A DNA stretch of 64,000 nucleotides, from NCBI GenBank assembly GCA_051362555.1, contig CM120646.1:3410001-3474000 (forward strand), in the 5' to 3' direction. The position numbers and the translations under genes are program-made. Below, one piece after another: positions 1,234 through 64,000 of this stretch. This stretch comes from Lingula anatina. Taxonomy: Eukaryota; Animalia; Brachiopoda. Below the pieces are notes generated by a model. The model was not told where the DNA came from, did no database searches, and saw only the letters and a program-made list of their open reading frames with translations. Position 1 is the stretch's first letter; the number at the start of each line of letters is the position of its first letter.

Positions 1234-1752
1234 CTACCGACCTTGTTCCGGCTGTGAAACACTCGCAGTCAGCGCTCTCCGCAGATCACCCAGTGCTTTT
1301 TGATCTTTAGGAAGGACTTCATTAGCATTAAAGTAAAGGCGTCTTATAGCTCTATATTTCTCCATCTTGTTAAAAGTATCTTGTACGGTAACGCCAAGAG
1401 CACATACGGGTATGAACTGGGGACGTCCCAACCGATCTAGAAAGGCACTTTCAGCAATATGTTCGCTCCAGCAGTCTTGGATGAAAGCCGGGCACATGAC
1501 TGGTACAATAAACTTTGACTCTTTTAAAGCATTAAAAAGTGCCTCAAAAACTCTTTGCCCAGGGTTCACGTCTCTGTGGGGATAGAATACTTTAAGTTTA
1601 CATTCTTTTTCCAAATATTCCAAGAGCGCTTCCGTAAATTTTTCACTTCTCGTTATAGCTTCCTCGTCTGCGTTTCCTGTTAACATTGTTCTGTCACAGC
1701 TCAACAATAAAACGTCATATTTCCTCTGCTCCGATTTGCAACTTGCCGCCAT
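1234..1752 (-). CDS. TIR-domain exon, class A (172 aa if unspliced); its tail exons would lie left of the window
   Basis: TIR hallmarks: YDVLLLS (box 1/betaA), KVFYPHRDVNPG (BB loop RDxxPG), SKFIVPVMCPAFIQDCW (betaC-alphaC), FIPV (betaD). In-frame TGA two codons before the ATG. Donor-like AG|GTCGGT at 1242. Confidence 0.88.
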   Translation of the reverse strand: MAASCKSEQRKYDVLLLSCDRTMLTGNADEEAITRSEKFTEALLEYLEKECKLKVFYPHRDVNPGQRVFEALFNALKESKFIVPVMCPAFIQDCWSEHIAESAFLDRLGRPQFIPVCALGVTVQDTFNKMEKYRAIRRLYFNANEVLPKDQKALGDLRRALTASVSQPEQGR

Positions 1753-2846
1753 ATCTCAGATAGGACTATTGATTTGTGAGTTCAATCTTCTTGTGTACAG
1801 TGTCCTAACAACGAGCTTTCCGACCTCTGCCAGTGTGTAAACCTATATATATTTTGGCCCCTTACTGTCAAGCGGAGAAAACTGAAGTGCCGTCGTGTGG
1901 ACAACAATACAGGGAATATGTTTATATGTTGTTGCGTTTCCAACCAACGCCGCCATTTTGTTATACAGTACAATATGCTTTATTCCAATAATCAATGATT
2001 GCATTTGTCAGTCTTTAAAAATATAGTGCAGAGAAAGCCACATGTAAACGGGTAAAATTCATTAGAAGAAAAAATGAAAGAAATATATATAGAAATATAT
2101 CGATTGATATTGCTTTATTTTAACATTTGAGCAACTTGTATAACATTAACATCTAAAGCAAAGTACCAGCAATGAAAATATGTCAATATTGTTACACCCA
2201 ACATTGATTAAAGCAATGCAAAAATACATGAATGTGGCCAAAATGGTTAGTTTTTATTTTAATGTGGTGATTATTTTATTTCATACTTTAGACAGTTAGC
2301 CAGTGAACACTAAATTCTCTTTTAAAACTTGGAGCACTCTTCAATTTCAGCCAAAAATTAAATTTCACAAATTTATCTGCGTTCCAGTATCAGTTCATAT
2401 TTGCATCTGAATTAATTAATCTTTAATAAATAGCACTTGTCTACAAACCATGTCATGTGTGCAAAAACTTGCATATTAAACTAAAAACAATGTACTTTTT
2501 GACTGCATACACCTTTCTTTAGGTGGTTCAAACCTAAGATAATATGACAAATTTAGGTACACTGATTACCAATAAATATTATTATAAACAACAGCCAGCA
2601 CAGCTCAAAAATATTTTTTTATCCCTTAAAAGTTCGTCAAAAGTTGTGACCAAATTCAACTCACATTCTAAATTCTACTTAAAAACTAGACAGCAGAGCT
2701 GAGAAATATACAGATACCATAGAGGAAACAAGGCAGCAAAGCTGACAAATGTTCAGTACACAGAAAAGAGTGCGCCAAATAATATTTTGACCAATTTTAG
2801 TGTACTGTTTCCGGGTACATAATGCTTTGTAACAGCATAATCACTC

Positions 2847-2929
2847 TTATCTTCTTACATTATGTACTACAGGTAACATGGACATTGAAATACCACCAAG
2901 TAATTCAGTTTCATGGGATAGAAAAGCCA
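2847..2929 (-). other. Candidate short alternative or terminal exon (V)AFLSHETELLGGISMSMLPVVHNVRR*
   Basis: Acceptor ttttacacattttcag and open frame in phase 1, matching the TIR-exon donor. Homologues occur in every unit (e.g. 11207-11289, 40756-40834). Confidence 0.3.
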
Positions 2930-3086
2930 CTGAAAATGTGTAAAAAATAAAATAAATATTAAAAAAAGATTAATTACCGTAAACGTAAACCTATCATGTA
3001 AATCAGGATTACATGTGTCTGTATATAAATAGCAAAAAGAAAGAAAACGCGGTATTCCGGCGGCTGGTTTCCTTAACAACGTACCA

Positions 3087-4043
3087 CACCCAAACCCAAT
3101 ATAGAGGTGTAATTGATGTCACAAGCATGTTATTAAAAATATTTACTGCACAGATTGCTAACTGTGTTTGATTATTTTAGGGTCCCACATGAAGAAGCTT
3201 GTATAAAAGTTTCACTCTCCTGGAACCATGAATAATTAAAAATAATTCATCGTTTAACCCCAAAAAGGAACATACGTTACTGTTACAAATACAAAACGTC
3301 CAACTGTGAAGCCTTCTACTGACTTTGAAAATTCAGTCATCACTGGTTTTGTGCATTGATTTATCTCCTACATGTATAACGTTGCTAAAAATTATAATAA
3401 TCTTCTGTATAGACCAGTTAATTGTTTTTTTGCGACTTAAGTTTGCTTGTCACAGAATATTAAAAAATGGGGAAAATTCACCCTACCGACAGTAAAATAA
3501 GCATTAAATAATCATGTTTCCCTTCATGATCCAAAGATTATATCAGAAATGTCAAACTATCATGGAACCACAATATATTGTTCGGTCAGCAAAAGAAAAC
3601 ATTGTATCTCTTGCACACAAGTACTTGAACAAAATTAAACATTTTGACAATTTTTCTAGGGAACATACGTTACCTAGTATAAGCCATGACGCAAAGCCCC
3701 TTGAGATACATTTTAAATATTTTTAAAAACGTCCTTACGTCATGTCTAATTTACCATGACTGAACCACTAAAAAACATATCGGAACGCGGCATAAAAATG
3801 AAAATTAAGTGGCAAGAACATACGTTACCGTACGTTTTTTGGAACATACGTTACCATATAGGGCTCTTTGCTTAATGTTAAAGATATGGTAAAAATTAAA
3901 AATTGAATTTCAGTTGAGACAGTCGTGGATTTTTGTTCTATACACATATATGTTTTGAAATATTGAATACAATTTTGAATTCATTCATTTTTATTTTTTG
4001 ACACTTCAACATGTGAAATGCACCTCTATATTGGGTTTGGGTG
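3087..4043. mobile_element. Non-autonomous DNA transposon, CAC...GTG termini with 4-bp TSD (Chapaev/CMC-like)
   Basis: 23-bp perfect terminal inverted repeats CACCCAAACCCAATATAGAGGTG. ACCA is duplicated at 3083-3086 and 4044-4047. The empty site cgtACCAacaaat is seen at ~113-125. Internal motif GAACATACGTTAC occurs four times. No transposase ORF. Confidence 0.85.
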
Positions 4044-5832: not shown

Positions 5833-6352
5833 CTACTGACCTTGTTCCGGCTGTGAAACACTCGCAGTCAGCGCTCTCCGCAGATCACCCAGCGCTTTTT
5901 TTGTCTTTAGGAAGGACTTCATTAGCATTAAAGTAAAGGGATCTTATAACTCTATATTTCTTCATTTTGTCGTTAATATCTTGGACGGTAACGCCAAGGG
6001 CACATACGGGTATGAACTGGGCACGTCCCAACCGATCTAGAAAGGCACTATCAGCAATATATTTGCTCCAGCAGTCTTGGATGAACGCCGGGCACATGAC
6101 TGGTACAATAAACTTCGACTTTTCTAAAGCATTAAAAAGTGCCTCAAAAACAGGTTGCCCAGGGTTCACGTCTCTGCGGGCATAGAATACATTAAGTTTA
6201 CATTCTTTTTCCAAATATTCCAAGAGCGCTTCCGTAAATTTTTCACTTCTCGTTATAGCTTCCTCGTCTGCGTTTCCTGTAAACATTGTTCTGTCACAGC
6301 TCAACAATAAAACGTCATATTTCCTCTGCTCCGATCTGCAACTTGCCGCCAT
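5833..6352 (-). pseudogene. TIR-domain exon, class B, with +1 frameshift near the 3' end (real lesion or homopolymer error)
   Basis: Nearly identical to 17306-17824, but T7 at 5896-5902 versus T6 in sister copies ends the ORF at 155 aa (...KDKKSAG*). Confidence 0.7.
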
Positions 6353-7211: not shown

Positions 7212-7212
<1 letters not shown>

Positions 7213-9447: not shown

Positions 9448-10466
9448 TTAAGCTGAGAACAGCTGTGGTGTCGAGTTTTCTGTACACAAAATACACATCC
9501 AGAAGACTGGGGCAACATCTCTAAGAAAAGATGACAGTGAACCCATCCAACCTCGCACAGAATTCTCGCTGCTTGCATCCTCCACAGCGTCTTGGCCCTG
9601 TCTCTCTTCGGCTGTGTCTTCGCCCATGGCTTCGCAATCCCTGTCTTCACGGTTTGGGCCCTGAAAAACTTTCGACTGTGTTTTGGACATAGGTGAGACG
9701 GGGCTGTACCAGTCCACAGGGGGTGAGGAAGAACCACGGTCTTCAGGAGCGGCCGCATTTCCCTCACTGAAATTCTGATTTAATGGCTCCAGTCGCGCTG
9801 TAACGGAGTCACGGCCGGTGCCAACATGCACAAGTGGTCGTGGTGGTAAATCCTGACTCAGATTATCCCCGGGAGAACTCGGACCTGGTTGAGGTTGTCC
9901 TTCCACAGTTTGGTGCCTTACATCGTCGTTGAAGTGCGGTCCATATGAGCTTTCGACCCTTGTCTGACGTACTCCATCCCGAGGTTCTAGTGTCTTCATT
10001 CCCTTGTTTTGAAAGGAATAAAGAAATAATTTAATTTAATTTGTTATATTACAAATAATATGTTTTAGAATGCACATGTTGAAATGACGACATCTGTTAT
10101 TCAAGTGTATTTGGATGATACACATTTAGGTCTCCTATTAGATCAAGAGCAAAACAAATATGAAAAACAAATCATTTACATGTGAGAACATGCAATTTAA
10201 CCAAAACGTTGATTTGTCGTGCAACTTTCGATTGTGGTATATATTTTTTGTCATTGCAGATATTCGGAGTAGTATATCACGTAATTAAACCTGAAGTAAC
10301 TATTGTTCATTAAATTAGATATGTATACCTCTTGCTGGCATTCCAAGCCGTCAGACTGTGTCTGGAGAAGAGGGGGAGGTTGGCCACCCCTGAAAAATTA
10401 AGAAAATGAAAATAAATGAAATTTGAAATAAGCTAAAATAACAACAATTTTATCAATTCCTTTTTA

Positions 10467-10514
<48 letters not shown>

Positions 10515-10984
10515 AGAAAATGGGAGGGGTCGAAATAGGTAAAGTTTGGTATTTCTCATTAGGTTTTAAGTTAAATAAAATCTTACTTCAGTATACAACC
10601 CATTTTTAAAGAAAACCAATTATAATAAAAGACATAAAACTTAAATTTAAAAATTCACAAAACGAAGCAGGAGGACGAGGGGGCTCCCTGTAGCCCTGTG
10701 TATCTGCCTCTCGGTATGCTTCTGACTATCAGATTATTTTATATATAATTATATATATATATATATATGGAATAATCTGATAATCATATTATTCCATATA
10801 TAATTATGATTAAATTTACACCTCATTCAGCTCTCAATCATGGAAACCACTCGGAGAGGAGTACAATGCATTATGGTTAAGATATTAACATACGTGACGC
10901 CGTCGCATGGCGGAACTGACTCTTCCTTTGGTCGACTTAATTCTCCATTGCTTTCATCGCCTGGTCCTTCGTTATTCCCGTCAT
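9448..10984 (-). CDS. Tail module 1: exons 10984-10894 (91 nt), 10389-10329 (61 nt), 10002-9448 (555 nt); disordered acidic/Pro-rich region with hydrophobic C-terminus
   Basis: tttgcag|ATGAC...GTCAC|gtatgt; tttttcag|GGGTG...AAGAG|gtatac; ttcctttcaaaacaag|GGAATG. Phases 1-2, 2-0 and 0 give one open frame: (D)DGNNEGPGDESNGELSRPKEESVPPCDGVTGGQPPPLLQTQSDGLECQQEG followed by MKTLEPRD... Confidence 0.75.
10468..10508 (+). repeat. (TC)n microsatellite in a tail intron, one per unit
   Basis: Seen directly; length and interruptions differ among units. Confidence 0.9.
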
Positions 10985-12938: not shown

Positions 12939-13457
12939 CTACCGACCTTGTTCCGGCTGTGAAACACTCGCAGTCAGCGCTCTCCGCAGATCACCCAGTG
13001 CTTTTTGATCTTTAGGAAGGACTTCATTAGCATTAAAGTAAAGGCGTCTTATAGCTCTATATTTCTCCATCTTGTTAAAAGTATCTTGTACGGTAACGCC
13101 AAGAGCACATACGGGTATGAACTGGGGACGTCCCAACCGATCTAGAAAGGCACTTTCAGCAATATGTTCGCTCCAGCAGTCTTGGATGAAAGCCGGGCAC
13201 ATGACTGGTACAATAAACTTTGACTCTTTTAAAGCATTAAAAAGTGCCTCAAAAACTCTTTGCCCAGGGTTCACGTCTCTGTGGGGATAGAATACTTTAA
13301 GTTTACATTCTTTTTCCAAATATTCCAAGAGCGCTTCCGTAAATTTTTCACTTCTCGTTATAGCTTCCTCGTCTGCGTTTCCTGTTAACATTGTTCTATC
13401 ACAGCTCAACAATAAAACGTCATATTTCCTCTGCTCCGATCTGCAACTTGCCGCCAT
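12939..13457 (-). CDS. TIR-domain exon, class A; predicted to splice at 12947 to tail module 1 (405-aa product)
   Basis: Same TIR motifs as 1234-1752. CAAG|gtcggt phase-1 donor. 511+91+61+555 = 1218 nt open frame. Confidence 0.88.
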   Translation of the reverse strand: MAASCRSEQRKYDVLLLSCDRTMLTGNADEEAITRSEKFTEALLEYLEKECKLKVFYPHRDVNPGQRVFEALFNALKESKFIVPVMCPAFIQDCWSEHIAESAFLDRLGRPQFIPVCALGVTVQDTFNKMEKYRAIRRLYFNANEVLPKDQKALGDLRRALTASVSQPEQGR

Positions 13458-17305: not shown

Positions 17306-17824
17306 CTACTGACCTTGTTCCGGCTGTGAAACACTCGCAGTCAGCGCTCTCTGCAGATCACCCAGCGCTTTTTTGTCTTTAGGAAGGACTTCATTAGCAT
17401 TAAAGTAAAGGGATCTTATAACTCTATATTTCTTCATTTTGTCGTTAATATCTTGGACGGTAACGCCAAGGGCACATACGGGTATGAACTGGGCACGTCC
17501 CAACCGATCTAGAAAGGCACTATCAGCAACATATTTGCTCCAGCAGTCTTGGATGAACGCCGGGCACATGACTGGTACAATAAACTTCGACTTTTCTAAA
17601 GCATTAAAAAGTGCCTCAAAAACAGGTTGCCCAGGGTTCACGTCTCTGCGGGCATAGAATACATTAAGTTTACATTCTTTTTCCAAATATTCCAAGAGCG
17701 CTTCCGTAAATTTTTCACTTCTCGTTATAGCTTCCTCGTCTGCGTTTCCTGTAAACATTGTTCTATCACAGCTCAACAATAAAACGTCATATTTCCTCTG
17801 CTCCGATCTGCAACTTGCCGCCAT
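17306..17824 (-). CDS. TIR-domain exon, class B (no tail module of its own; the next TIR exon intervenes)
   Basis: TIR motifs with BB loop FYARRDVNPGQP. Donor-like CAAG|gtcagt at 17314. Confidence 0.88.
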   Translation of the reverse strand: MAASCRSEQRKYDVLLLSCDRTMFTGNADEEAITRSEKFTEALLEYLEKECKLNVFYARRDVNPGQPVFEALFNALEKSKFIVPVMCPAFIQDCWSKYVADSAFLDRLGRAQFIPVCALGVTVQDINDKMKKYRVIRSLYFNANEVLPKDKKALGDLQRALTASVSQPEQGQ

Positions 17825-20882: not shown

Positions 20883-21914
20883 TTAAGCTGAGAACAGCTG
20901 TGGTGTCGAGTCTTCTGTACACAAAATACACATCCAGAAGACTGGGGCAACATCTCTAAGAAAAGATGACAGTGAACCCATCCAACCTCGCACAGAATTC
21001 TCGCTGCTTGCATCCTCCACAGCGTCTTGGCCCTGTCTCTCTTCGGCTGTGTCTTCGCCCATGGCTTCGCAATCCCTGTCTTCACAGTTTGGGCCCTGAA
21101 AAACTTTCGACTGTGTTTTGGACATAGGTGAGACGGGGCTGTACCAGTCCACAGGGGGTGAGGAAGAACCACGGTCTTCAGGAGCGGCCGCATTTCCCTC
21201 ACTGAAATTCTGATTTAATGGCTCCAGTCGCGCTGCAACGGAGTCACGGCCGGTGCCAACATGCACAAGTGGTCGTGGTGGTAAATCCTGACTCGGATTA
21301 TCCCCGGGAGAACTCGGACCTGGTTGAGGTTGTCCTTCCACAGTTTGGTGCCTTACATTGTCGTTGAAGTGCGGTCCATATGAGCTTTCGACCCTTGTCT
21401 GACGTACTCCATCCCGAGGTTCTAGTGTCTTCATTCCCTTGTTTTGAAAGGAATAAAGAAATAATTTAATTTAATTTGTTATATTACAAATAATATGTTT
21501 TAGAATGCACATGTTGAAATGACGACATCTGTTATTCAAGTGTATTTGGATGATACACATTTAGGTCTCCTATTAGATCAAGAGCAAAACAAATATGAAA
21601 AACAAATCATTTACATGTGAGAACATGCAATTTAACCAAAACGTTGATTTGTCGTGCAACTTTCGATTGTGGTATATATTTTTTGTCATTGCAGATATTC
21701 GGAGTAGTATATCACGTAATTAAACCTGAAGTAACTATTGTTCATAAAATTAGATATGTATACCTCTTGCTGGCATTCCAAGCCGTCAGACTGTGTCTGG
21801 AGAAGAGGGGGAGGTTGGCCACCCCTGAAAAATTAAGAAAATGAAAATAAATGAAATTTGAAATAAGCTGAAATAACAACAATTTTATCAATTCCTTTTT
21901 AGTTCTCTCTCTCC

Positions 21915-21967
<53 letters not shown>

Positions 21968-22433
21968 AGAAAATGGGAGGGGTCGAAATAGGTAAAGTTT
22001 GGTATTTCTCATTAGGTTTTAAGTTAAATAAAATCTTACTTCAGTATACAACCCATTTTTAAAGAAAACCCATTATAATAAAAGACATAAAACTTAAATT
22101 TAAAAATTCACAAAACGAAGCAGGAGGACGAGGGGGCTCCCTGTAGCCCTGTGTATCTGCCTCTCGGTATGCTTCTGACTATCAGATTATTTTATATATA
22201 ATTATATATATATATATGGAATAATCTGATAATCATATTATTCCATATATAATTATGATTAAATTTACACCTCATTCAGCTCTCAATCATGGAAACCACT
22301 CGGAGAGGAGTACAATGCATTATGGTTAAGATATTAACATACGTGACGCCGTCGCATGGCGGAACTGACTCTTCCTTTGGTCGACTTAATTCTCCATTGC
22401 TTTCATCGCCTGGTCCTTCGTTATTCCCGTCAT
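20883..22433 (-). CDS. Tail module 2: exons 22433-22343, 21824-21764, 21437-20883
   Basis: Same splice signals and open frame as module 1, with a few substitutions. Confidence 0.75.
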
Positions 22434-24398: not shown

Positions 24399-24917
24399 CT
24401 ACCGACCTTGTTCCGGCTGTGAAACACTCGCAGTCAGCGCTCTCCGCAGATCACCCAGTGCTTTTTGATCTTTAGGAAGGACTTCATTAGCATTAAAGTA
24501 AAGGCGTCTTATAGCTCTATATTTCTCCATCTTGTTAAAAGTATCTTGTACGGTAACGCCAAGAGCACATACGGGTATGAACTGGGGACGTCCCAACCGA
24601 TCTAGAAAGGCACTTTCAGCAATATGTTCGCTCCAGCAGTCTTGGATGAAAGCCGGGCACATGACTGGTACAATAAACTTTGACTCTTTTAAAGCATTAA
24701 AAAGTGCCTCAAAAACTCTTTGCCCAGGGTTCACGTCTCTGCGGGGATAGAATACTTTAAGTTTACATTCTTTTTCCAAATATTCCAAGAGCGCTTCCGT
24801 AAATTTTTCACTTCTCGTTATAGCTTCCTCGTCTGCGTTTCCTGTTAACATTGTTCTATCACAGCTCAACAATAAAACGTCATATTTCCTCTGCTCCGAT
24901 CTGCAACTTGCCGCCAT
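24399..24917 (-). CDS. TIR-domain exon, class A (H59R variant); predicted to splice at 24407 to tail module 2
   Basis: TIR motifs. The upstream region carries a ~280-bp deletion at ~24958. Confidence 0.86.
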   Translation of the reverse strand: MAASCRSEQRKYDVLLLSCDRTMLTGNADEEAITRSEKFTEALLEYLEKECKLKVFYPRRDVNPGQRVFEALFNALKESKFIVPVMCPAFIQDCWSEHIAESAFLDRLGRPQFIPVCALGVTVQDTFNKMEKYRAIRRLYFNANEVLPKDQKALGDLRRALTASVSQPEQGR

Positions 24918-28260: not shown

Positions 28261-28318
28261 TGTTTATAATATATCAAGAGAGAGAGAGATAGAGAGAGAA
28301 TCAAACTCTCTTTTTCTA

Positions 28319-28840
28319 CTACCGACCTTGTACCGGCTGTGCAACACCCGCAGTCAGCGCTCTCCGCAACTTATCCAGCGCTTCTGGGTCATCTTCTGGT
28401 AGGACTGCGGCAGCTTCAAAGTAAAGGCATTTTATAACTCTATATTTCTTCATTTTGTCGTTAATATCTTGGACGGTAACGCCAAGGGCACATACGGGTA
28501 TGAACTGGGCACGTCCCAACCGATCTAATAAGGCACTGTCAGCAATATATTTGCTCCAGCAGTCTTGGGTGAACGCCGGGCACATGACTGGTACAATAAA
28601 CTTCGACTTTTCTAAAGCATTAAAAAGTGCCTCAAAAACAGGTTGCCCAGGGTTCACGTCTCTGCGGGCATAGAATACATTAAGTTTACATTCTTTTTCC
28701 AAATATTCCAAGAGCGCTTCCGTAAATTTTTCACTTCTCGTTATAGCTTCCTCGTCTGCGTTTCCTGTTAACATTGTTCTATCACAGCTCAACAATAAAA
28801 CGTCATATTTCCTCTGCTCCGATCTGCAACTTGCCGCCAT
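28319..28840 (-). CDS. TIR-domain exon, mosaic: B-type N-terminal part with C-type C-terminal part (173 aa)
   Basis: MAASCRSEQRK...FYARRDVNPGQP as in class B; SALLDR and KCLYFEAAAVLPEDDPEALDKL...PVQGR as in class C. Confidence 0.88.
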   Translation of the reverse strand: MAASCRSEQRKYDVLLLSCDRTMLTGNADEEAITRSEKFTEALLEYLEKECKLNVFYARRDVNPGQPVFEALFNALEKSKFIVPVMCPAFTQDCWSKYIADSALLDRLGRAQFIPVCALGVTVQDINDKMKKYRVIKCLYFEAAAVLPEDDPEALDKLRRALTAGVAQPVQGR

Positions 28841-32949: not shown

Positions 32950-32990
<41 letters not shown>

Positions 32991-35421: not shown

Positions 35422-35940
35422 CTACTGACCTTGTTCCGGCTGTGAAACACTCGCAGTCAGCGCTCTCTGCAGATCACCCAGCGCTTTTTTGTCTTTAGGA
35501 AGGACTTCATTAGCATTAAAGTAAAGGGATCTTATAACTCTATATTTCTTCATTTTGTCGTTAATATCTTGGACGGTAACGCCAAGGGCACATACGGGTA
35601 TGAACTGGGCACGTCCCAACCGATCTAGAAAGGCACTATCAGCAATATATTTGCTCCAGCAGTCTTGGATGAACGCCGGGCACATGACTGGTACAATAAA
35701 CTTCGACTTTTCTAAAGCATTAAAAAGTGCCTCAAAAACAGGTTGCCCAGGGTTCACGTCTCTGCGGGCATAGAATACATTAAGTTTACATTCTTTTTCC
35801 AAATATTCCAAGAGCGCTTCCGTAAATTTTTCACTTCTCGTTATAGCTTCCTCGTCTGCGTTTCCTGTAAACATTGTTCTATCACAGCTCAACAATAAAA
35901 CGTCATATTTCCTCTGCTCCGATCTGCAACTTGCCGCCAT
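35422..35940 (-). CDS. TIR-domain exon, class B; directly followed by tail module 3 (donor at 35430)
   Basis: TIR motifs and CAAG|gtcagt donor. The intron switches from B-type to A-type variants around 35040-35120. Confidence 0.88.
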   Translation of the reverse strand: MAASCRSEQRKYDVLLLSCDRTMFTGNADEEAITRSEKFTEALLEYLEKECKLNVFYARRDVNPGQPVFEALFNALEKSKFIVPVMCPAFIQDCWSKYIADSAFLDRLGRAQFIPVCALGVTVQDINDKMKKYRVIRSLYFNANEVLPKDKKALGDLQRALTASVSQPEQGQ

Positions 35941-37888
35941 ATCTCAGATAGGACTATTGATTTGTGAGTTCAATCTTCTTGTGTACAGTGTCCTAACAAC
36001 GAGCTTTCCGACCTCTGCCAGTGTGTAAACCTATATATATTTTGGCCCCTTACTGTCAAGCGGAGAAAACTGAAGTGCCGTCGTGTGGACAACAATACAG
36101 GGAATATGTTTATATGTTGTTGCGTTTCCAACCAACGCCGCCATTTTGTTATACAGTGCATTTATGCTTTATTCCAATAATCAATGATTGCATTTGTCAG
36201 TCTTTAAAAATATAGTGCAGAGAAAGCCACATGTAAACGGGTACTTTCGGGTCTTTTGTGACATTCTTTTAAGTTTTAATATGAAAAATAAGTTAGAAAA
36301 CTCTCCTTTATCTGATATACAGAAACCAATAGTCTAAAACAAGTGGGGCACTTGCGCTGAGGTGATTCATCCCCAGAAATGGACTGCATGACGTCACGCA
36401 TAGCCCACTGCGCATGCGTGCATTTTTAATACGTTGCTAGATTGCCATAGATAAATGAATGGGTTCGCGATTCGTGGGTAATTCGTGATACTTGACAAAC
36501 TAACGGCCTGCTGTCGATAGACAGCAACGCTGTGCTATGCTTCAAGCAACTCCTGACCAATAGGGTTTAAAAAAATTATGTTGTACACACGTACTAAGAA
36601 GTTTGCCGTGCATTGCCTAGCCTACCCTCAGCAAAACGAAATTATTTTCAGAAATAGTGATTTTAGACTGTAGATTCACTCAGAAACAAAGGCAAACTAA
36701 TTCGTTGCCGATAGCACCAGCAGATGGCAGCACCATACAGAGTCTGTTTTAAAACTTTCATGGCAATTGAAGAACTTTTACCACTGTACAATGGAGTCCA
36801 AAAAAAAAAAAAAAAAAAAAAAAAAAGCACTTGGCACAAATGTAAAACTGTCCAGTGCAAGGCCAAGAATTCAATCATTTTCAATCATATTATCAGATTC
36901 TACATAAATTGACTGACAATATCACTATTTAATTAATCTCTTAATCCAAAATTCCTATCATCATTTAGTAATTATGCAAAATTCTTCTTTCAGATTGCTG
37001 TTTATTTTAATTTTTTTAATGCTGCAACTGTTCCAAAATAATCTTGCAGAAAAGGAAAAATACAAAATAGAAGTGGAAGACCATTTTTACTCAAATTATT
37101 CATTTATTTGAATATAAAAAGAATAAGATCACTATTTAACAACTTAAAATAATATTTCATGAACTCTTTCATAAATAACATATTAAACAAAAATAATAGT
37201 TATAAATTAGTGGTAATGGCTTATTCTGAAATATATGACCTCTGCACACCATCAGTACTTGGTACAGTATAGTTACTTCTTGGATACAGAGTTATATTTT
37301 TTATAATGTAACAATAAGAACAATATATATTACAATAAACTCCTCTGCACATGTCAGACGCTAGTTACTACGAACTAACACTCGAGCACTTATCACAGAG
37401 TCTGTGTACGATGACATTGTTGTGCTGTGATTGGCTAGTTAAGTCACGTGAAGCCCTACTGTAGCGCCCTCGCGTATCGCGTGAAAGCTGCGCATTATTG
37501 GCCTTTCAGCCAGAACTTCTAACACAGTCAGCGAGCCTTTCAGATTCATGGTGAACTTACTAAATGTAGGTCTATTTAACACCTGTCTGTCTCGTATTTT
37601 TTTCCTTTTTGACACATGCATTGCATTTTTAAACACGAACGCTTCTTATGTTTGAGAATTCTGAAATATATGAAACGTCGCCAAGCTGACTTTAAAAATG
37701 TTAAAGACTGTCTTAACCAAACAGACTAAGCGTGCTCGAAAGGTATACTGGAGTATCTGATTTGTTTTGTTAAATGAGCTTTGAAATTTTCATCATATGA
37801 CTAACAATGTCACATCACTCCAATGCAGAGGTACTCCTTCCATCTTAAAACATAAAAACACACGCATGCATGCATGCATACATGTATG

Positions 37889-38988: not shown

Positions 38989-40029
38989 TTAGTCAGTCTT
39001 ATCAATGGCCATTCTTAGCATTGTTTTAAGCTGAGAGTCTTCTGTACACAAAATACACATCCAGAAGACTGGGGCAACATCTCTAAGAAAAGATGACAGT
39101 GGACCCATCCAACCTCGCACAGAATTCTCGCTGCTTGCATCCTCCACAGCGTCTTGGCCCTGTCTCTCTTCGGCTGTGTCTTCGCCCATGGCTTCGCAAT
39201 CCCTGTCTTCACGGTTTGGGCCCTGAAAAACTTTCGACTGTGTTTTGGACATAGGTGAGACGGGGCTGTACCAGTCCACAGGGGGTGAGGAAGAACCACG
39301 GTCTTCAGGAGCGGCCGCATTTCCCTCACTGAAATTCTGATTTAATGGCTCCAGTCGCGCTGTAACGGAGTCACGGCCGGTGCCAACATGCACAAGTGGT
39401 GGTGGTGGTAAATCCTGACTCGGATTATCCCCGGGAGAACTCGGACCTGGTTGAGGTTGTCCTTCCACAGTTTGGTGCCTTACATCGTCGTTGAAGTGCG
39501 GTCCATATGAGCTTTCGACCCTTGTCTGACGTACTCCATCCCGAGGTTCTAGTGTCTTCATTCCCTTGTTTTGAAAGGAATAAAGAAATAATTTAATTTA
39601 ATTTGTTATATTACAAATAATATGTTTTAGAATGCACATGTTGAAATGACGACATCTGTTATTCAAGTGTATTTGGATGATACACATTTAGGTCTCCTAT
39701 TAGATCAAGAGCAAAACAAATATGAAAAACAAATCATTTACATGTGAGAACATGCAATTTAACCAAAACGTTGATTTATCGTGCAACTTTCGATTGTGGT
39801 GTATATTTTTTGTCATTGCAGATATTCGGAGTAGTATATCACGTAATTAAACCTGAATTAACTATTGTTCATAAAATTAGATATTTATACCTCTTGCTGG
39901 CATTCCAAGCCGTCAGACTGTGTCTGGAGAAGAGGGGGAGGTTGGCCACCCCTGAAAAATAAAGAAAATGAAAATAAATGAAATTTGAAATAAGCTAAAA
40001 TTACAACAATTTTATCAGTTCCTTTTTAG

Positions 40030-40068
<39 letters not shown>

Positions 40069-40528
40069 AGAAAGTGGGAGGGGGTCGAAATAGGTAAAGT
40101 TTGGTATTTCTCATTAGGTTCTAAGTTAAATAAAATCTTACTTCAGTTTACAACCCATTTTTAAAGAAAAACCATTTTAATAAAAGACATGAAACTTAAA
40201 TTTAAAAATTGACAAAGCGAAGCAGGAGGACGAGGGGGCTCCCTGTAGCCCTCTGTATCTGCCTCTCGGTATGCATCTGACTATCAGATTATTTTATATA
40301 TAATTATATATATATGGAATAATATATAATTATGATTAAATTTACACCTCATTCAGCTCTCAATCATGGAAACCACTCGGAGAGGAGTACAATGCATTAT
40401 GGTAAAGATATTAACATACGTGACGTCATCTTGTGAATAAAGGACGTCGCATGGCGGAACTGACTCTTCCTGTGGTCGACTTATTTCTCCATTGCTTTTA
40501 TCGCCTGGTCCTTCGTTATTCCCGTCAT
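38989..40528 (-). CDS. Tail module 4 (C-type): exons 40528-40420 (109 nt), 39951-39891, 39564-38989; altered C-terminus
   Basis: First tail exon is 18 nt longer in frame (PPCDVLYSQDDV). A 16-nt deletion at ~39036 shifts the end to ...CTEDSQLKTMLRMAIDKTD*. Confidence 0.72.
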
Positions 40529-42944: not shown

Positions 42945-43466
42945 CTACCGACCTTGTACCGGCTGTGCAACACCCGCAGTCAGCGCTCTCCGCAACTTAT
43001 CCAGCGCTTCTGGGTCATCTTCTGGTAGGACTGCGGCAGCTTCAAAGTAAAGGCATTTTATAACTCTATATTTCTTCATCTTGTCGTTAATATCTTGAAC
43101 GGTAACGCCGAGGGCACATACGGGTATGAACTGGGCACGTCCCAACCGATCTAATAAGGCACTGTCAGCAATACATTTGCTCCAGCAGTCTTGGATGAAA
43201 GCCGGGCATATGACTGGTACAAAAAACTTCGACTTTTTTAAAACATCAAAACGTCCGTCAAAAACACTCTGTCCAGGGTTCACGTCATTGCAGTCAAAGA
43301 ACACTTTCAGGTTACATTTTGTTTCGAAATATTTTGCAAGGGCACACGCAAAGTCAATATTTTTTCTTATAGCTTCCTCGCCTGCGTTTCCTGTCGCCAG
43401 TTCACGATCATAGCCCAACAAGTAAACGTCATACATGTAAGGCTCTACACTCAAACTGGCCGCCAT
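42945..43466 (-). CDS. TIR-domain exon, class C; predicted to splice at 42953 to tail module 4
   Basis: YDVYLLGY (betaA), KVFFDCNDVNPG (BB loop), SKFFVPVICPAFIQDCW. Same TGA-GAT-ATG start context and CAAG|gtcggt donor. Confidence 0.88.
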   Translation of the reverse strand: MAASLSVEPYMYDVYLLGYDRELATGNAGEEAIRKNIDFACALAKYFETKCNLKVFFDCNDVNPGQSVFDGRFDVLKKSKFFVPVICPAFIQDCWSKCIADSALLDRLGRAQFIPVCALGVTVQDINDKMKKYRVIKCLYFEAAAVLPEDDPEALDKLRRALTAGVAQPVQGR

Positions 43467-46835: not shown

Positions 46836-47855
46836 TTAAGCTGAGAACAGCTGTGGTGTCGAGTCTTCTGTACACAAAATACACATCCAGAAGACTGGGG
46901 CAACATCTCTAAGAAAAGATGACAGTGGACCCATCCAACCTCGCACAGAATTCTCGCTGCTTGCATCCTCCACAGCGTCTTGGCCCTGTCTCTCTTCGGC
47001 TGTGTCTTCGCCCATGGCTTCGCAATCCCTGTCTTCACGGTTTGGGCCCTGAAAAACTTTCGACTGTGTTTTGGACATAGGTGAGACGGGGCTGTACCAG
47101 TCCACAGGGGGTGAGGAAGAACCACGGTCTTCAGGAGCGGCCGCATTTCCCTCACTGAAATTCTGATTTAATGGCTCCAGTCGCGCTGTAACGGAGTCAC
47201 GGCCGGTGCCAACATGCACAAGTGGTCGTGGTGGTAAATCCTGACTCGGATTATCCCCGGGAGAACTCGGACCTGGTTGAGGTTGTCCTTCCACAGTTTG
47301 GTGCCTTACATCGTCGTTGAAGTGCGGTCCATATGAGCTTTCGACCCTTGTCTGACGTACTCCATCCCGAGGTTCTAGTGTCTTCATTCCCTTGTTTTGA
47401 AAGGAATAAAGAAATAATTTAATTTAATTTGTTATATTACAAATAATATGTTTTAGAATGCACATGTTGAAATGACGACATCTGTTATTTAAGTGTAATT
47501 GGATGATACACATTTAGGTCTCCTATTAGATCAAGAGCAAAACAAATATGAAAAACAAATCATTTACATGTGAGAACATGCAATTTAACCAAAACGTTGA
47601 TTTATCGTGCAACTTTCGATTGTGGTGTATATTTTTTGTCATTGCAGATATTCGGAGTAGTATATCACGTAATTAAACCTGAATTAACTATTGTTCATAA
47701 AATTAGATATTTATACCTCTTGCTGGCATTCCAAGCCGTCAGACTGTGTCTGGAGAAGAGGGGGAGGTTGGCCACCCCTGAAAAATAAAGAAAATGAAAA
47801 TAAATGAAATTTGAAATAAGCTAAAATTACAACAATTTTATCAGTTCCTTTTTAG

Positions 47856-47914
<59 letters not shown>

Positions 47915-48374
47915 AGAAAGTGGGAGGGGGTCGAAATAGGTAAAGTTTGGTATTTCTCATTAGGTTCTAAGTTAAATAAAATCTTACTTCAGTTTACAAC
48001 CCATTTTTAAAGAAAAACCATTTTAATAAAAGACATGAAACTTAAATTTAAAAATTGACAAAGCGAAGCAGGAGGACGAGGGGGCTCCCTGTAGCCCTCT
48101 GTATCTGCCTCTCGGTATGCATCTGACTATCAGATTATTTTATATATAATTATATATATATGGAATAATATATAATTATGATTAAATTTACACCTCATTC
48201 AGCTCTCAATCATGGAAACCACTCGGAGAGGAGTACAATGCATTATGGTAAAGATATTAACATACGTGACGTCATCTTGTGAATAAAGGACGTCGCATGG
48301 CGGAACTGACTCTTCCTGTGGTCGACTTATTTCTCCATTGCTTTCATCGCCTGGTCCTTCGTTATTCCCGTCAT
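46836..48374 (-). CDS. Tail module 5 (C-type): exons 48374-48266, 47777-47717, 47390-46836
   Basis: Intact splice sites and frame. Joined to TIR exon 50803-51316 it gives 1239 nt (412 aa). Confidence 0.75.
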
Positions 48375-50794: not shown

Positions 50795-51316
50795 CTACCG
50801 ACCTTGTACCGGCTGTGCAACACCCGCAGTCAGCGCTCTCCGCAACTTATCCAGCGCTTCTGGGTCATCTTCTGGTAGGACTGCGGCAGCTTCAAAGTAA
50901 AGGCATTTTATAACTCTATATTTCTTCATCTTGTCGTTAATATCTTGAACGGTAACGCCGAGGGCACATACGGGTATGAACTGGGCACGTCCCAACCGAT
51001 CTAATAAGGCACTGTCAGCAATATATTTGCTCCAGCAGTCTTGGATGAAAGCCGGGCATATGACTGGTACAAAAAACTTCGACTTTTTTAAAACATCAAA
51101 ACGTCCGTCAAAAACACTCTGTCCAGGGTTCACGTCATTGCAGTCAAAGAACACTTTCAGGTTACATTTTGTTTCGAAATATTTTGCAAGGGCACACGCA
51201 AAGTCAATATTTTTTCTTATAGCTTCCTCGCCTGCGTTTCCTGTCGCCAGTTCACGATCATAGCCCAACACGTAAACGTCATACATGTAAGGCTCTACAC
51301 TCAAACTGGCCGCCAT
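50795..51316 (-). CDS. TIR-domain exon, class C; predicted to splice to tail module 5
   Basis: Two amino-acid differences from 42945-43466. Confidence 0.88.
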   Translation of the reverse strand: MAASLSVEPYMYDVYVLGYDRELATGNAGEEAIRKNIDFACALAKYFETKCNLKVFFDCNDVNPGQSVFDGRFDVLKKSKFFVPVICPAFIQDCWSKYIADSALLDRLGRAQFIPVCALGVTVQDINDKMKKYRVIKCLYFEAAAVLPEDDPEALDKLRRALTAGVAQPVQGR

Positions 51317-54664: not shown

Positions 54665-55684
54665 TTAAGCTGAGAACAGCTGTGGTGTCGAGTCTTCTGT
54701 ACACAAAATACACATCCAGAAGACTGGGGCAACATCTCTAAGAAAAGATGACAGTGGACCCATCCAACCTCGCACAGAATTCTCGCTGCTTGCATCCTCC
54801 ACAGCGTCTTGGCCCTGTCTCTCTTCGGCTGTGTCTTCGCCCATGGCTTCGCAATCCCTGTCTTCACGGTTTGGGCCCTGAAAAACTTTCGACTGTGTTT
54901 TGGACATAGGTGAGACGGGACTGTACCAGTCCACAGGGGGTGAGGAAGAACCACGGTCTTTAGGAGCGGCCGCATTTCCCTCACTGAAATTCTGATTTAA
55001 TGGCTCCAGTCGCGCTGTAACGGAGTCACGGCCGGTGCCAACATGCACAAGTGGTGGTGGTGGTAAATCCTGACTCGGATTATCCCCGGGAGAACTCGGA
55101 CCTGGTTGAGGTTGTCCTTCCACAGTTTGGTGCCTTACATCGTCGTTGAAGTGCGGTCCATATGAGCTTTCGACCCTTGTCTGACGTACTCCATCCCGAG
55201 GTTCTAGTGTCTTCATTCCCTTGTTTTGAAAGGAATAAAGAAATAATTTAATTTAATTTGTTATATTACAAATAATATGTTTTAGAATGCACATGTTGAA
55301 ATGACGACATCTGTTATTCAAGTGTATTTGGATGATACACATTTAGGTCTCCTATTAGATCAAGAGCAAAACAAATATGAAAAACAAATCATTTACATGT
55401 GAGAACATGCAATTTAACCAAAACGTTGATTTATCGTGCAACTTTCGATTGTGGTGTATATTTTTTGTCATTGCAGATATTCGGAGTAGTATATCACGTA
55501 ATTAAACCTGAATTAACTATTGTTCATAAAATTAGATATTTATACCTCTTGCTGGCATTCCAAGCCGTCAGACTGTGTCTGGAGAAGAGGGGGAGGTTGG
55601 CCACCCCTGAAAAATAAAGAAAATGAAAATAAATGAAATTTGAAATAAGCTAAAATTACAACAATTTTATCAGTTCCTTTTTAG

Positions 55685-55731
<47 letters not shown>

Positions 55732-56191
55732 AGAAAGTGGGAGGGGGTCGAAATAGGTAAAGTTTGGTATTTCTCATTAGGTTCTAAGTTAAATAAAATC
55801 TTACTTCAGTTTACAACCCATTTTTAAAGAAAAACCATTTTAATAAAAGACATGAAACTTAAATTTAAAAATTGACAAAGCGAAGCAGGAGGACGAGGGG
55901 GCTCCCTGTAGCCCTCTGTATCTGCCTCTCGGTATGCATCTGACTATCAGATTATTTTATATATAATTATATATATATGGAATAATATATAATTATGATT
56001 AAATTTACACCTCATTCAGCTCTCAATCATGGAAACCACTCGGAGAGGAGTACAATGCATTATGGTAAAGAAATTAACATACGTGACGTCATCTTGTGAA
56101 TAAAGGACGTCGCATGGCGGAACTGACTCTTCCTGTGGTCGACTTATTTCTCCATTGCTTTCATCGCCTGGTCCTTCGTTATTCCCGTCAT
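54665..56191 (-). CDS. Tail module 6 (C-type): exons 56191-56083, 55606-55546, 55219-54665
   Basis: Intact splice sites and frame. Confidence 0.75.
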
Positions 56192-58611: not shown

Positions 58612-59133
58612 CTACCGACCTTGTACCGGCTGTGCAACACCCGCAGTCAGCGCTCTCCGCAACTTATCCAGCGCTTCTGGGTCATCTTCTGGTAGGACTG
58701 CGGCAGCTTCAAAGTAAAGGCATTTTATAACTCTATATTTCTTCATCTTGTCGTTAATATCTTGAACGGTAACGCCGAGGGCACATACGGGTATGAACTG
58801 GGCACGTCCCAACCGATCTAATAAGGCACTGTCAGCAATATATTTGCTCCAGCAGTCTTGGATGAAAGCCGGGCATATGACTGGTACAAAAAACTTCGAC
58901 TTTTTTAAAACATCAAAACGTCCGTCAAAAACACTCTGTCCAGGGTTCACGTCATTGCAGTCAAAGAACACTTTCAGGTTACATTTTGTTTCGAAATATT
59001 TTGCAAGGGCACACGCAAAGTCAATATTTTTTCTTATAGCTTCCTCGCCTGCGTTTCCTGTCGCCAGTTCACGATCATAGCCCAACAAGTAAACGTCATA
59101 CATGTAAGGCTCTACACTCAAACTGGCCGCCAT
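58612..59133 (-). CDS. TIR-domain exon, class C; predicted to splice at 58620 to tail module 6
   Basis: TIR motifs as in the other class C copies. Confidence 0.88.
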   Translation of the reverse strand: MAASLSVEPYMYDVYLLGYDRELATGNAGEEAIRKNIDFACALAKYFETKCNLKVFFDCNDVNPGQSVFDGRFDVLKKSKFFVPVICPAFIQDCWSKYIADSALLDRLGRAQFIPVCALGVTVQDINDKMKKYRVIKCLYFEAAAVLPEDDPEALDKLRRALTAGVAQPVQGR

Positions 59134-60265: not shown

Positions 60266-60306
<41 letters not shown>

Positions 60307-61365: not shown

Positions 61366-61406
<41 letters not shown>

Positions 61407-62476
61407 TAAGCGATAAAAGGCAAAACCAATACATTTACCGTCCTGTGTCCTATATAACTAGTTAACTGTCCTTATTAACAGTGTACTACATTAGGTTTAC
61501 ATAACATCTACCAGGGTGAGTGAGGTGATTTCTTTCAGTTTTAATTGTCACCTTTGCCAAAGATTGTAAAGATTTCCTTTGCCAAAGATTGTGAATTCTT
61601 CCAGACTATCTACATCTACAGTAGGTCTCGACTATAACTGTTGCTGCATTTTTCTCCACTTCTAGACGAGGCCATATAAAATGTTTCACTAACTTTGGTA
61701 GGCCTATAATCTTTTTAGGCCATTTAGAATTACAAACAACTTTGTGGGTACTGGTATCAGCAGTGATTTTGGTCGGTGATTACACATTCATTGCCCCAAA
61801 TCAAAACAATTATATATACTGGGTATTTGTCGATAAAAAAACTACGTAAACTTGATTTTAGTATGATAGTGCTATGCCATAAATACCCAGTAAGCAATAA
61901 ACAGAATATCCTCACATAACAATAACGCTGAGTTTTTGGTTTAAATAAAATGCTTTAAGTAATACAGGTCATGCATTTCTCGACTTCATACAATACGGTA
62001 CGTTCTATTTACCTTTGCAAATTATTTTTATTTTTATTATTATTATAATTATTATTGTTACAATCTACATTCTATTATGGCTTCAACAAGGTCTAATATC
62101 ATCACATAATTTACATATCAGAACGTCGTATTTAAAAAAGATATTTTATGCGCCGTTTGAGGCCCATAAACAGTTCATTAATGAACTGCCATCTCTTACT
62201 TCATCCTGGTGAAATATTTGGATGGACATCAAAGTTCTCTTAAACTTTTGCCAAAGTTTCTTTATGAAGAAACTTGATCACAACACATTAGATTTGATGG
62301 GTCTCAGTCTACACTTAAATTACTGGAATGTACACGAGTATTAACCTTACATTGTGCCATTAGTCAGTCTGTGCATTAGCCAGACCTAGCATTAGTCAGT
62401 CTTTGCATTAGCCAGACTCAACATTAGCCGGTCTTTGCATTAGTCAGTCTTATCAATGGCCATTCTTAGCATTGTT

Positions 62477-63496
62477 TTAAGCTGAGAACAGCTGTGGTGT
62501 CGAGTTTTCTGTACACAAAATACACATCCAGAAGACTGGGGCAACATCTCTAAGAAAAGATGACAGTGAACCCATCCAACCTCGCACAGAATTCTCGCTG
62601 CTTGCATCCTCCACAGCGTCTTGGCCCTGTCTCTCTTCGGCTGTGTCTTCGCCCATGGCTTCGCAATCCCTGTCTTCACGGTTTGGGCCCTGAAAAACTT
62701 TCGACTGTGTTTTGGACATAGGTGAGACGGGGCTGTACCAGTCCACAGGGGGTGAGGAAGAACCACGGTCTTCAGGAGCGGCCGCATTTCCCTCACTGAA
62801 ATTCTGATTTAATGGCTCCAGTCGCGCTGTAACGGAGTCACGGCCGGTGCCAACATGCACAAGTGGTCGTGGTGGTAAATCCTGACTCGGATTATCCCCG
62901 GGAGAACTCGGACCTGGTTGAGGTTGTCCTTCCACAGTTTGGTGCCTTACATCGTCGTTGAAGTGCGGTCCATATGAGCTTTCGACCCTTGTCTGACGTA
63001 CTCCATCCCGAGGTTCTAGTGTCTTCATTCCCTTGTTTTGAAAGGAATAAAGAAATAATTTAATTTAATTTGTTATATTACAAATAATATGTTTTAGAAT
63101 GCACATGTTGAAATGACGACATCTGTTATTCAAGTGTATTTGGATGATACACATTTAGGTCTCCTATTAGATCAAGAGCAAAACAAATATGAAAAACAAA
63201 TCATTTACATGTGAGAACATGCAATTTAACCAAAACGTTGATTTGTCGTGCAACTTTCGATTGTGGTATATATTTTTTGTCATTGCAGATATTCGGAGTA
63301 GTATATCACGTAATTAAACCTGAAGTAACTATTGTTCATAAAATTAGATATGTATACCTCTTGCTGGCATTCCAAGCCGTCAGACTGTGTCTGGAGAAGA
63401 GGGGGAGGTTGGCCACCCCTGAAAAATTAAGAAAATGAAAATATATGAAATTTGAAATAAGCTGAAATAACAACAATTTTATCAATTCCTTTTTAG

Positions 63497-63541
<45 letters not shown>

Positions 63542-64000
63542 AGAAAATGGGAGGGGTCGAAATAGGTAAAGTTTGGTATTTCTCATTAGGTTTTAAGTTA
63601 AATAAAATCTTACTTCAGTATACAACCCATTTTTAAAGAAAACCCATTATAATAAAAGACATAAAACTTAAATTTAAAAATTCACAAAACGAAGCAGGAG
63701 GACGAGGGGGCTCCCTGTAGCCCTGTGTATCTGCCTCTCGGTATGCTTCTGACTATCAGATTATTTTATATATAATTTTATATATATATATGGAATAATC
63801 TGATAATCATATTATTCCATATATAATTATGATTAAATTTACACCTCATTCAGCTCTCAATCATGGAAACCACTCGGAGAGGAGTACAATGCATTATGGT
63901 TAAGATATTAACATACGTGACGCCGTCGCATGGCGGAACTGACTCTTCCTTTGGTCGACTTAATTCTCCATTGCTTTCATCGCCTGGTCCTTCGTTATTC
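62477..64000 (-). CDS. Tail module 7 (A-type): exons >64000-63917, 63418-63358, 63031-62477; its TIR exon lies beyond the window
   Basis: Short PPCDGV form of the first tail exon, and intron variants matching modules 1-3. Confidence 0.72.

Follow-up and report, generated by a model that had tools for sequence, protein, structure and literature searches.

The window, by which we mean the whole 64-kb stretch of Lingula anatina DNA analysed here, carries a tandem array in which two TIR starts precede five of the six tails with a visible upstream region. This arrangement of two TIR first exons, or heads, before one tail in the repeat units, which resembles that of the RefSeq variants X1 and X2 of a Lingula gene, was overlooked in the earlier note on this DNA. 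In our judgement, the array is recent, and there is an even chance that it encodes an adaptor without enzymatic activity that associates with membranes, recruits TRAF proteins and has exchangeable heads.

The array itself is real: the 64-kb window holds ten TIR exons, seven tails, three 44-codon fragments, one mosaic and three lesions (the frameshift in T2, a premature TAG in tail 3 and a frameshifting deletion at the end of tail 4), all in one orientation on the minus strand (Table 1), and the birth-and-death turnover proposed from mosaic, fragments and lesions holds as well. Array copies differ by 10-45 substitutions between pairs, and the TIR exons share 99.4-99.8% of their DNA sequence within a class, 93-94% between classes A and B and 79-80% between A/B and C. 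There are more heads than tails because three extra upstream heads, T2, T4 and T6, exist; these have kept the full putative promoter region and have lost their own exon 2, the T4 intron being broken around 27 nt short of the expected exon 2 start. The tails of T1 and T2 lie outside the left edge of the window and the head of tail 7 outside the right edge. Class C units are deletions joining the A/B promoter and 44 codons to a remnant of C's own flank, and class C heads lie behind a 44-codon upstream ORF. A promoter role of the shared upstream region is suggested by the elements given in Table 1.

Table 1. Coordinates of TIR exons, tails and the shared upstream region in the window.
Feature	Position	Strand	Description
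T1	1234..1752	minus	class A; tail beyond left window edge; 302 nt shared upstream sequence kept
T2	5833..6352 (start approximate)	minus	class B; extra upstream head; 1-nt frameshift near 3' end
Tail 1	9448..10984	minus	exon 2 10894-10984; predicted exon 3 10659-10721, exon 4 10329-10389; last exon 9448-10002
T3	12939..13457	minus	class A; adjoins tail 1; 302 nt shared upstream sequence
T4	17306..17824	minus	class B; extra upstream head for tail 1
Tail 2	20883..22433	minus	exon 2 22343-22433; predicted exons 22112-22174, 21764-21824; last exon 20883-21437
T5	24399..24917	minus	class A; only 41 nt upstream sequence remains, so own promoter lost
T6	28319..28840	minus	B/C mosaic; extra upstream head for tail 2; full promoter region
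Tail 3	31972..33454	minus	exon 2 33364-33454; two small predicted exons; last exon from 32475; Trp/Cys-rich end lost through premature TAG in last exon
T7	35422..35940	minus	class B; sole single-head unit; exon used for fold model
Shared upstream region	36100..36400	minus	TGACGTCA (-456), TGAATCA (-429), AAAATGGCGG (-207) from ATG; consensus matches only
Tail 4	38989..40528	minus	exon 2 40420-40528; predicted exons 40214-40276, 39891-39951; last exon from 39564, with terminal frameshifting deletion
T8	42945..43466	minus	class C; upstream: remnant of own 5' flank and 44-codon A/B-type fragment 43606-43740
Tail 5	46836..48374	minus	exon 2 48266-48374; predicted exons 48060-48122, 47717-47777; last exon 46836-47390
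T9	50795..51316	minus	class C; with 44-codon fragment 51456-51590
Tail 6	54665..56191	minus	exon 2 56083-56191; predicted exons 55877-55939, 55546-55606; last exon 54665-55219
T10	58612..59133	minus	class C; with 44-codon fragment 59273-59407
Tail 7	62477..64000	minus	window edge cuts within exon 2

Synonymous divergence amounts to a dS of 0.07-0.27 for the heads versus 0-0.013 for the tails. The informative sites of the T6 mosaic are B-like at 70 of 70 positions on the left and at 3 of 29 on the right, and none of 2000 permutations was as extreme. From these sequence comparisons, we conclude that old heads sit on young tails and that gene conversion has occurred between heads. The differences between heads cluster in the BB loop, alpha-B, alpha-C, alpha-D and the strand-E region. 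While the adaptor-like anatomy described earlier, with an N-terminal TIR, a linker and a distinct end, stands, the accompanying idea of a rapidly diversifying family was not borne out: the dN/dS of the heads is 0.64-0.90 with all six intervals spanning 1, and positive selection on the heads was thus not demonstrated by this measure.

All four TIR exons tested scored 30.5-37.3 bits for Pfam TIR_2, above its cut-off of 28, and the TIR fold was confirmed by an AlphaFold model of T7 based on a 29-row alignment (pLDDT 82.7, pTM 0.78); TIR domains lead its Foldseek and VIA matches, with IL-1RAPL2 at Z 15.1 (rmsd 3.2, 146 aligned). This model superseded a single-sequence model with mostly flavodoxin matches (pLDDT 58.5). 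LRR, death, ARM and NACHT domains are absent, as had been stated, from the window ORFs tested with Pfam and from the relatives P0001 and P0002. The catalytic position, four residues after the alpha-C Trp, is occupied by Ile in classes A, B and C; the register was set by aligning W-s-k-Y-t of the family profile to W-S-K-Y-E of TLR2 and by an alignment with TLR15. No Glu was found at this position among the relatives with a correctly read motif, the catalytic-site pattern having misread three rows and missed three. A preprint describes this Glu as essential for TIR NAD+ processing and many animal TIRs as catalytic (bioRxiv 10.64898/2026.04.20.719644). Without the catalytic Glu, the TIR encoded in the window is likely non-enzymatic.

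Splicing was followed in RNA reads from diverged individuals, with T6 as the reference exon; none of the reads was at least 95% alike to the window's exon, and counts were low (2, 6 and 31). All seven reads in the two loose ends listed at the donor continue into exon-2 homologues, and reads from two further studies end at the identical donor base. In these individuals, heads of both types occur in spliced transcripts. An intron in the 5' UTR, preceded by a shared non-coding exon 1, was considered and dropped, as the 5' loose ends in run X11 (4 + 4 reads) continue as homologous unspliced UTR.

RNA covers the join between the TIR exon and exon 2, and exons 3 and 4 and the last-exon acceptor are predictions. 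Exon 2 and the last 58 codons of tail 1 match the relative P0001, which is without the middle of the linker. The linker, which had been called low-complexity, is not, but it is disordered (P/G/S/D/E/Q-rich), its middle ~150 residues being predicted. The last-exon ORF gave no Pfam match. Likewise, the hydrophobic end turned out to be an amphipathic stretch rather than a clear transmembrane helix: its moment of 0.61 was equalled in 4 of 2000 shuffles, and the Kyte-Doolittle 19-mer maximum is 1.36. The final 12 residues carry a net charge of -2 and, in being acidic, differ from a mitochondrial tail anchor. For 10 of the 15 full-length members, the most hydrophobic 25-mer ends at most 20 residues from the C-terminus, with a chance of 3-32% each. 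TRAF6, pLxIS and RHIM-core motifs were not found in the window's predicted tail, and a RHIM-like VHVG in the linker was rejected, having no Pfam RHIM match and being missing from P0001.

A TRAF-type motif directly after the TIR had also been overlooked. Of 16 members, 6 carry Px[QE][ED][TS] there, against an expectation of 0.2 from shuffles (none of 3000 as high), compared with 1 of 79 other linker windows; the pattern was picked once the alignment was seen, and the six carriers represent about four lineages. The window's own match in this test is PQEES in exon 2. Classes A/B read PKEES/PEQDD, to which PxQxT does not fit, and class C has QPVQD-D at a distance behind the TIR equal to that of QPVQDT in Mytilus. 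As the PVQET sequence of MAVS binds TRAF2/5 (PMC3743401), the motif may bind TRAF2/3/5-type proteins.

The nearest proteins are the uncharacterised X1 (XP_013415649.1) and X2 (XP_013415650.1) of L. anatina LOC106177431, which have an identical 94-residue tail behind different TIR heads. The TIR first exon of X1 is 77% identical to class C and 67% to A/B, and the locus shares with the window exon 2, the last 58 codons and two alternative TIRs on one tail, although the RefSeq join in X2 could be a modelling merge. In contrast to the window with its at least seven tails, it is annotated as one locus, and its tail has 94 residues rather than the about 240-260 predicted in the window, as well as 10 additional C-terminal residues. 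Further afield, 22 of 37 matches are of a mollusc type with an N-terminal TIR, a disordered linker and, in most of them, a hydrophobic end. The term lineage-specific applies to the expansion but not to the anatomy, which recurs in ten mollusc species (12 named records). Unnamed N-terminal-TIR proteins of Mercenaria, Mactra, Mya, Mytilus, Pinctada, Argopecten, Solemya, Haliotis and Gigantopelta resemble the window's in the long insert after strand A, the lack of the catalytic Glu, the disordered linker, the hydrophobic end and, in some, Px[QE][ED][TS]; two clam members have a Death domain after the TIR (P0004 by Pfam, P0035 by eye). However, the mollusc proteins form their own clade (98/92), separate from the Lingula clade (99/96). 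In a tree that took in 11 generic TIRs and left out vertebrate adaptors, the family was split from the generic TIRs at 99/96, with an Owenia TIR-Bcl-2 protein and P0033 on the family side. Held-out scores were 64-87 bits, versus 126-212 within the mollusc family and 33-49 for generic TIRs, and we regard the link between the Lingula array and the mollusc family as moderately supported. Word-based homologue searches yielded none of 692 longer and one of 62 near-length candidates, and an alignment-based search confined to proteins of 1244-3550 residues none of 4790. A protein-atlas search, in which small clusters cannot appear, gave look-alikes of TIRAP (0.89) and MyD88 (0.90) only and no cluster of its own.

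We propose that the first exon, encoding the whole TIR, would be spliced to the tail and that the TIR head would join receptor or adaptor TIR assemblies, while the motif behind it would recruit TRAF proteins and the amphipathic C-terminal end may dock on membranes. T2, T4 and T6 might serve as alternative first exons that skip the downstream head to join the shared tail, and the differences between heads could alter partner choice. A wider reading, which we consider possible but rather doubtful, is that an undescribed lophotrochozoan family of TIR-headed, MAVS/TRIF-like proteins fills the otherwise missing MyD88-independent branch. Its layout would consist of a TIR, an optional death domain, a TRAF site, a disordered linker and a membrane-binding end, which Lingula would vary by means of interchangeable TIR first exons that recombine, placed before a constant tail.

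Ordinary recent tandem duplication with decay, leaving one or two working genes and extra heads as leftovers without a special role, is in our estimate unlikely. The units are 0.3-1% apart, one of ten heads is frameshifted, two of seven tails are damaged, three fragments and one head without a promoter are present, and a dN/dS near 1 is also consistent with relaxed selection. In run X11, moreover, the two donor loose ends lead from the two head types into exon-2 variants that are not the same (3 differences in 18 letters), as would fit separate genes that do not share a tail. However, 9 of 10 copies of heads that are a dS of 0.27 apart retain an open frame of 170 codons, two heads per tail are seen in both kinds of unit and again in the RefSeq model, which comes from another assembly, and transcription and splicing extend to both head types. 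We give similarly little weight to the possibility that the proteins are decoys or negative regulators, either TIR-only forms made by donor read-through or full-length proteins acting as dominant negatives by capping TIR assemblies. An in-frame TAG lies two codons beyond the donor in all ten TIR exons, intron 1 contains AATAAA at +340 (C type) or about +800 (A/B), a death domain is lacking, and oyster TIR-only MyD88-like genes have been proposed as competitors (PMC4346834). Yet the depth beside the donor matches the reads ending there and each of the two listed loose ends leads into exon 2, which speaks weakly against read-through, and the conserved TRAF-type motif and the hydrophobic end point to an output.

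It seems improbable that the variable TIR heads serve to bait or sense pathogen proteins attacking TIR signalling, whose binding would trigger assembly on the constant tail: a variable head on a constant tail, gene conversion, a dN/dS that is high for a folded domain and differences in TIR interaction surfaces agree with this, but dN/dS is never above 1. Finally, an assembly artefact, conceivable for units at least 99% alike, or an NAD+-consuming TIR, as in many animals, can practically be set aside, as the three C units are 23-26 substitutions apart pairwise and the four upstream regions 10-27, a number of versions too large for two haplotypes, the class C deletion junction as well as A-type and A/B-type letters occur in DNA contigs from run X1, which may be the window's own sample, and the catalytic Glu is absent.

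In vertebrates, TRIF relays receptor signals to TRAF proteins, a role that an unnamed adaptor family of molluscs and brachiopods, to which the array likely belongs, would take on. Innate adaptors are usually low-copy. Molluscs have TRAF3, TBK1 and IRFs and no clear TRIF, TRAM or TIRAP, and uncharacterised TIR proteins have been guessed to replace the missing adaptors (PMC3308963, PMC4346834); abalones are reported to be without MAVS too (PMC11103948). A search of the literature outside subscription papers turned up, in the passages covered, no account of such a family, nor of TIR exons serving as alternative first exons. Members from mussel, scallop, clams and abalone are named candidates whose TRAF site can be tested. 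If the reading as an expanded adaptor with exchangeable heads is true, immune diversification would shift one step downstream of the receptors, and variable-exon logic would operate in an innate adaptor instead of a receptor.

Among solved structures, TIRAP/MAL gives class C its best sequence match (E 0.001) and the family profile its second best (E 4e-14), with an RDxxPG box, W-x-x-Y in alpha-C and a non-catalytic TIR in common. TIRAP/MAL (TIR group 10) is defined by Box 1 YDVCVCH with two cysteines, Box 2 RDxxPG, W-x-x-Y-x3-Q-x3-E and YPxELR (PMC7075850). The window heads instead have YDVLLLS or YDVYLLG without the cysteines in Box 1, W-x-x-Y in classes B and C only, with S and D at the places of the alpha-C Gln and Glu, and no YPxELR in alpha-D; Box 2 agrees in classes A and B (RDVNPG) and has lost its Arg in class C (NDVNPG). 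In addition, the TIR comes first in the window protein and the presumed membrane part last. Taken together, the TIR does not qualify as TIRAP/MAL. MyD88 has a death domain at its N-terminus and a TIR at its C-terminus, whereas the window protein has no death domain (profile E 0.005). TRIF/TICAM-1 and TRAM differ in the BB loop, EDFxxPG versus RDVNPG (profile E 0.4-0.6 for TRIF, 2e-5 for TRAM), TRIF also in its RHIM core and pLxIS, and SARM1 in its ARM/SAM domains and catalytic Glu.

The plan as a whole, with an assembly domain first, a TRAF-type motif, a long disordered linker and a hydrophobic end, is MAVS-like in layout only. Vertebrate MAVS consists of a CARD, a Pro-rich region and a TM. 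Here, the N-terminus is a TIR in place of the CARD, which speaks against MAVS membership, and the end is amphipathic and not a clear TM. Oyster MAVS, with its CARD-Death-TM layout (PMC5557890), has a Death domain in second place like some of the relatives. At the level of gene structure, the array recalls a different kind of locus. In the clustered protocadherins and UGT1A, several first exons, each comprising a promoter and a domain, precede shared constant exons. The window differs from these loci in that only two heads precede each tail, which they may use jointly, and in that the whole unit is repeated.

The window is animal DNA with a GC content of 31-40%, built entirely from tandemly repeated units that lie on the minus strand and continue past both of its edges. 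The earlier note had described an array of ten TIR exons in three classes with seven tails (exon 2 through the last exon). This array was recovered, with the ten TIR first exons (heads, T1-T10) falling into three each of classes A, B and C plus one B/C mosaic (T6), alongside three 44-codon TIR fragments. Repeated units differ by 10-45 substitutions in 12 of 12 pairs, more versions than two haplotypes would yield. DNA contigs of sequencing run X1, which is possibly the window's own sample and whose depth is not usable as a copy count, carry letters specific to single classes as well as the deletion junction of class C. Under the same species label, runs X3 and X14-X17 hold a share of 0.02-0.09 of one unit's words, compared with 0.71-0.79 in runs X1 and X2, which may mean that in other populations the array has strongly diverged or is absent. 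The intron of upstream heads carries a 957-bp element, a MITE-like DNA transposon, whose 28-nt terminal inverted repeats are 93% complementary and which shows an apparent 4-bp duplication, ACCA. A 16/32-nt tandem repeat follows the tail stops in the 3' UTR.

Coordinates of features in the window
Feature	Positions	Strand	Remarks
B/C mosaic TIR exon T6	28319-28840	minus	
Intact tail end	9448-9457	minus	With the six other tail ends; intact tails all stop 10 codons before the RefSeq relative (TAA vs its Lys)
Intron 1 tandem repeats, 91-nt and 152-nt	11346-11518; 41168-41448		Further copies; A/B and C units differ
957-bp element	3087-4043		
957-bp element	25961-26918		
957-bp element, one-ended copy	ending at 15490		
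Run X1 contigs	28240-29140		Loose ends at 28520, 28620

Two TIR starts lie ahead of five of the six tails whose upstream region is inside the window (T4+T3, T6+T5 and, three times, a fragment plus a class C head), and T2+T1 form a further pair with its tail beyond the window edge. The upstream heads retain 2.5 kb of common upstream sequence (98.4-98.8% identity), and their introns all break about 27 nt short of exon 2; the downstream class A heads retain 302, 302 and 41 nt of this sequence. In class C units, a deletion brought an A/B promoter with 44 codons up against what is left of C's own flank, so these, too, were two-head units. Head dS is 0.09 (A-B) and 0.27 (A/B-C) and tail dS 0-0.013 (230 codons, 15 pairs); by this measure, the heads are old and the tails young. 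The mosaic T6 and a weaker mosaic signal in class B (p 0.002) show exchange between heads. dN/dS is 0.64-0.90, with 1 inside all six intervals. We infer from this layout that the heads may serve as alternative first exons, in the manner of variable-first-exon loci such as the clustered protocadherins and UGT1A. However, two loose read ends at the donor in RNA run X11 bear different exon-2 variants, as expected of separate genes, which argues against alternative first exons. The run X1 contigs listed in the table contain X2-like TIR variants (X2 being an isoform of the Lingula gene LOC106177431) that are absent from the window, pointing to further head types outside it.

The whole TIR domain is a single exon with a phase-1 donor at its end and a TAG two codons past the donor. 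When exons are joined by splice consensus, the TIR is followed in the prediction by exon 2 (91 or 109 nt), a 63-nt exon that is optional, one of 61 nt and the last exon, giving predicted proteins of 388-440 residues; isoform X1 is matched by exon 2 and, at the 3' end, by the last 58 codons, and the middle exons are predicted from open frame and phase alone. RNA reads aligned to T6 (901 nt, likeness 80%) numbered 2, 6 and 31 in three runs from three studies, with 0 at a likeness of at least 95%. Run X11 has the class C letter at 30 of 38 coding differences, among the differences listed. Its two donor loose ends (3 and 4 reads) are both exon-2 homologues, and reads of runs X5 and X8 end at the same donor base; the family is therefore transcribed and spliced head-to-tail, at a low level and in diverged individuals. 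A further loose end, of 3 reads, resembles X2. At the 5' side, the loose ends read on into homologous unspliced UTR, so the TIR exon comes first in the gene.

The TIR assignment was upheld, as four of four exons tested passed the Pfam TIR_2 cut-off and the best fold-search matches of an AlphaFold model (29 alignment rows, pLDDT 82.7) were TIR domains. Ile occupies the place of the catalytic Glu in the window heads, and the TIR is thus likely a scaffold. Of 15 full-length family members, 10 have the most hydrophobic 25-mer of the tail ending at most 20 residues from the C-terminus. The motif Px[QE][ED][TS] occurs at most 45 residues past the TIR in 6 of 16 members, compared with 0.2 expected from shuffles and 1 of 79 windows elsewhere in the linkers, a count that omits five too-short rows and the dependent isoform X1, and for which the pattern was chosen after the alignment had been seen; the six carriers represent about four lineages. 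MAVS binds TRAF2 and TRAF5 via PVQET (PMC3743401).

The sole close matches were the RefSeq isoforms X1 (XP_013415649.1; 77% identity to class C, 67% to A/B) and X2 (XP_013415650.1; 44-51%) of the Lingula anatina gene LOC106177431, which differ in their TIR domains and have an identical 94-residue tail; the source of the window is accordingly probably a lingulid brachiopod. A full HMMER search gave 37 matches, sorted by eye into X2, 22 mollusc-type proteins (N-terminal TIR, disordered linker and, in most, a hydrophobic end), 11 generic TIRs and 3 unplaced; the 20 looked up were 12 named molluscs (10 species), one annelid TIR-Bcl-2 protein, X2 and six unnamed. A profile of 20 non-Lingula members scored the Lingula heads at 64-87 bits, generic TIRs at 33-49, unplaced at 42-75 and left-out members at 126-212. 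In a TIR tree of 40 rows, free of near-duplicates and vertebrate adaptors, support was 99/96 for Lingula, 98/92 for mollusc-type and 99/96 for generic TIRs. The annelid protein (P0016, Owenia fusiformis CAH1781043.1) is a TIR-Bcl-2 fusion: its N-terminal TIR, related to this group, is joined to a Bcl-2 domain, and a transmembrane helix lies at the C-terminus. Two bivalve matches, P0004 (Mercenaria) and P0035 (Mactra, by eye), have a TIR followed by a Death domain, a long linker and a common end resembling RPxLAYN; this order is the reverse of that in MyD88, and a parallel is oyster MAVS (CARD-Death-TM; PMC5557890). Abalones have two members per species (Haliotis rubra P0006, P0024; Haliotis asinina P0008, P0009), on equally long contigs, and they are possibly clustered there too.

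We propose, at about an even chance, that the product is an adaptor. The amphipathic end would keep it at a membrane, the head would enter TIR assemblies, clustered linkers would draw in TRAFs and different heads could tune which receptor is served. Heads (A, B, mosaic) differ at residues 54-67, 77-78, 97-101, 126-138 and 142-158, which fall on presumed TIR interaction surfaces (PMC7075850). That the products are decoys is improbable, and duplication with decay is no more probable; TIR heads as pathogen bait seem quite unlikely. An assembly artefact or an enzyme is scarcely credible, the former in view of unit versions exceeding two haplotypes and the run X1 contigs, the latter in view of the Ile.

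Taken together, the family is real and expressed, in diverged individuals, and would be a variant of the TIR-adaptor kind with a proposed function. Gerdol et al. reportedly classified invertebrate and Lingula TIR proteins in 2017 and 2018, and those sets may already contain it as an orphan-TIR family. Searches of the open literature turned up no description of the family; the supplements of bioRxiv 10.64898/2026.04.20.719644 may include the protein. The significance rests on the candidate adaptor family and the variable-head layout, both functionally putative. Whereas the Lingula product lacks defining features of TIRAP, MyD88, TRIF, SARM1 and MAVS, its general plan is similar to that of TRIF and MAVS, and the TIR sequence of its heads resembles that of TIRAP.
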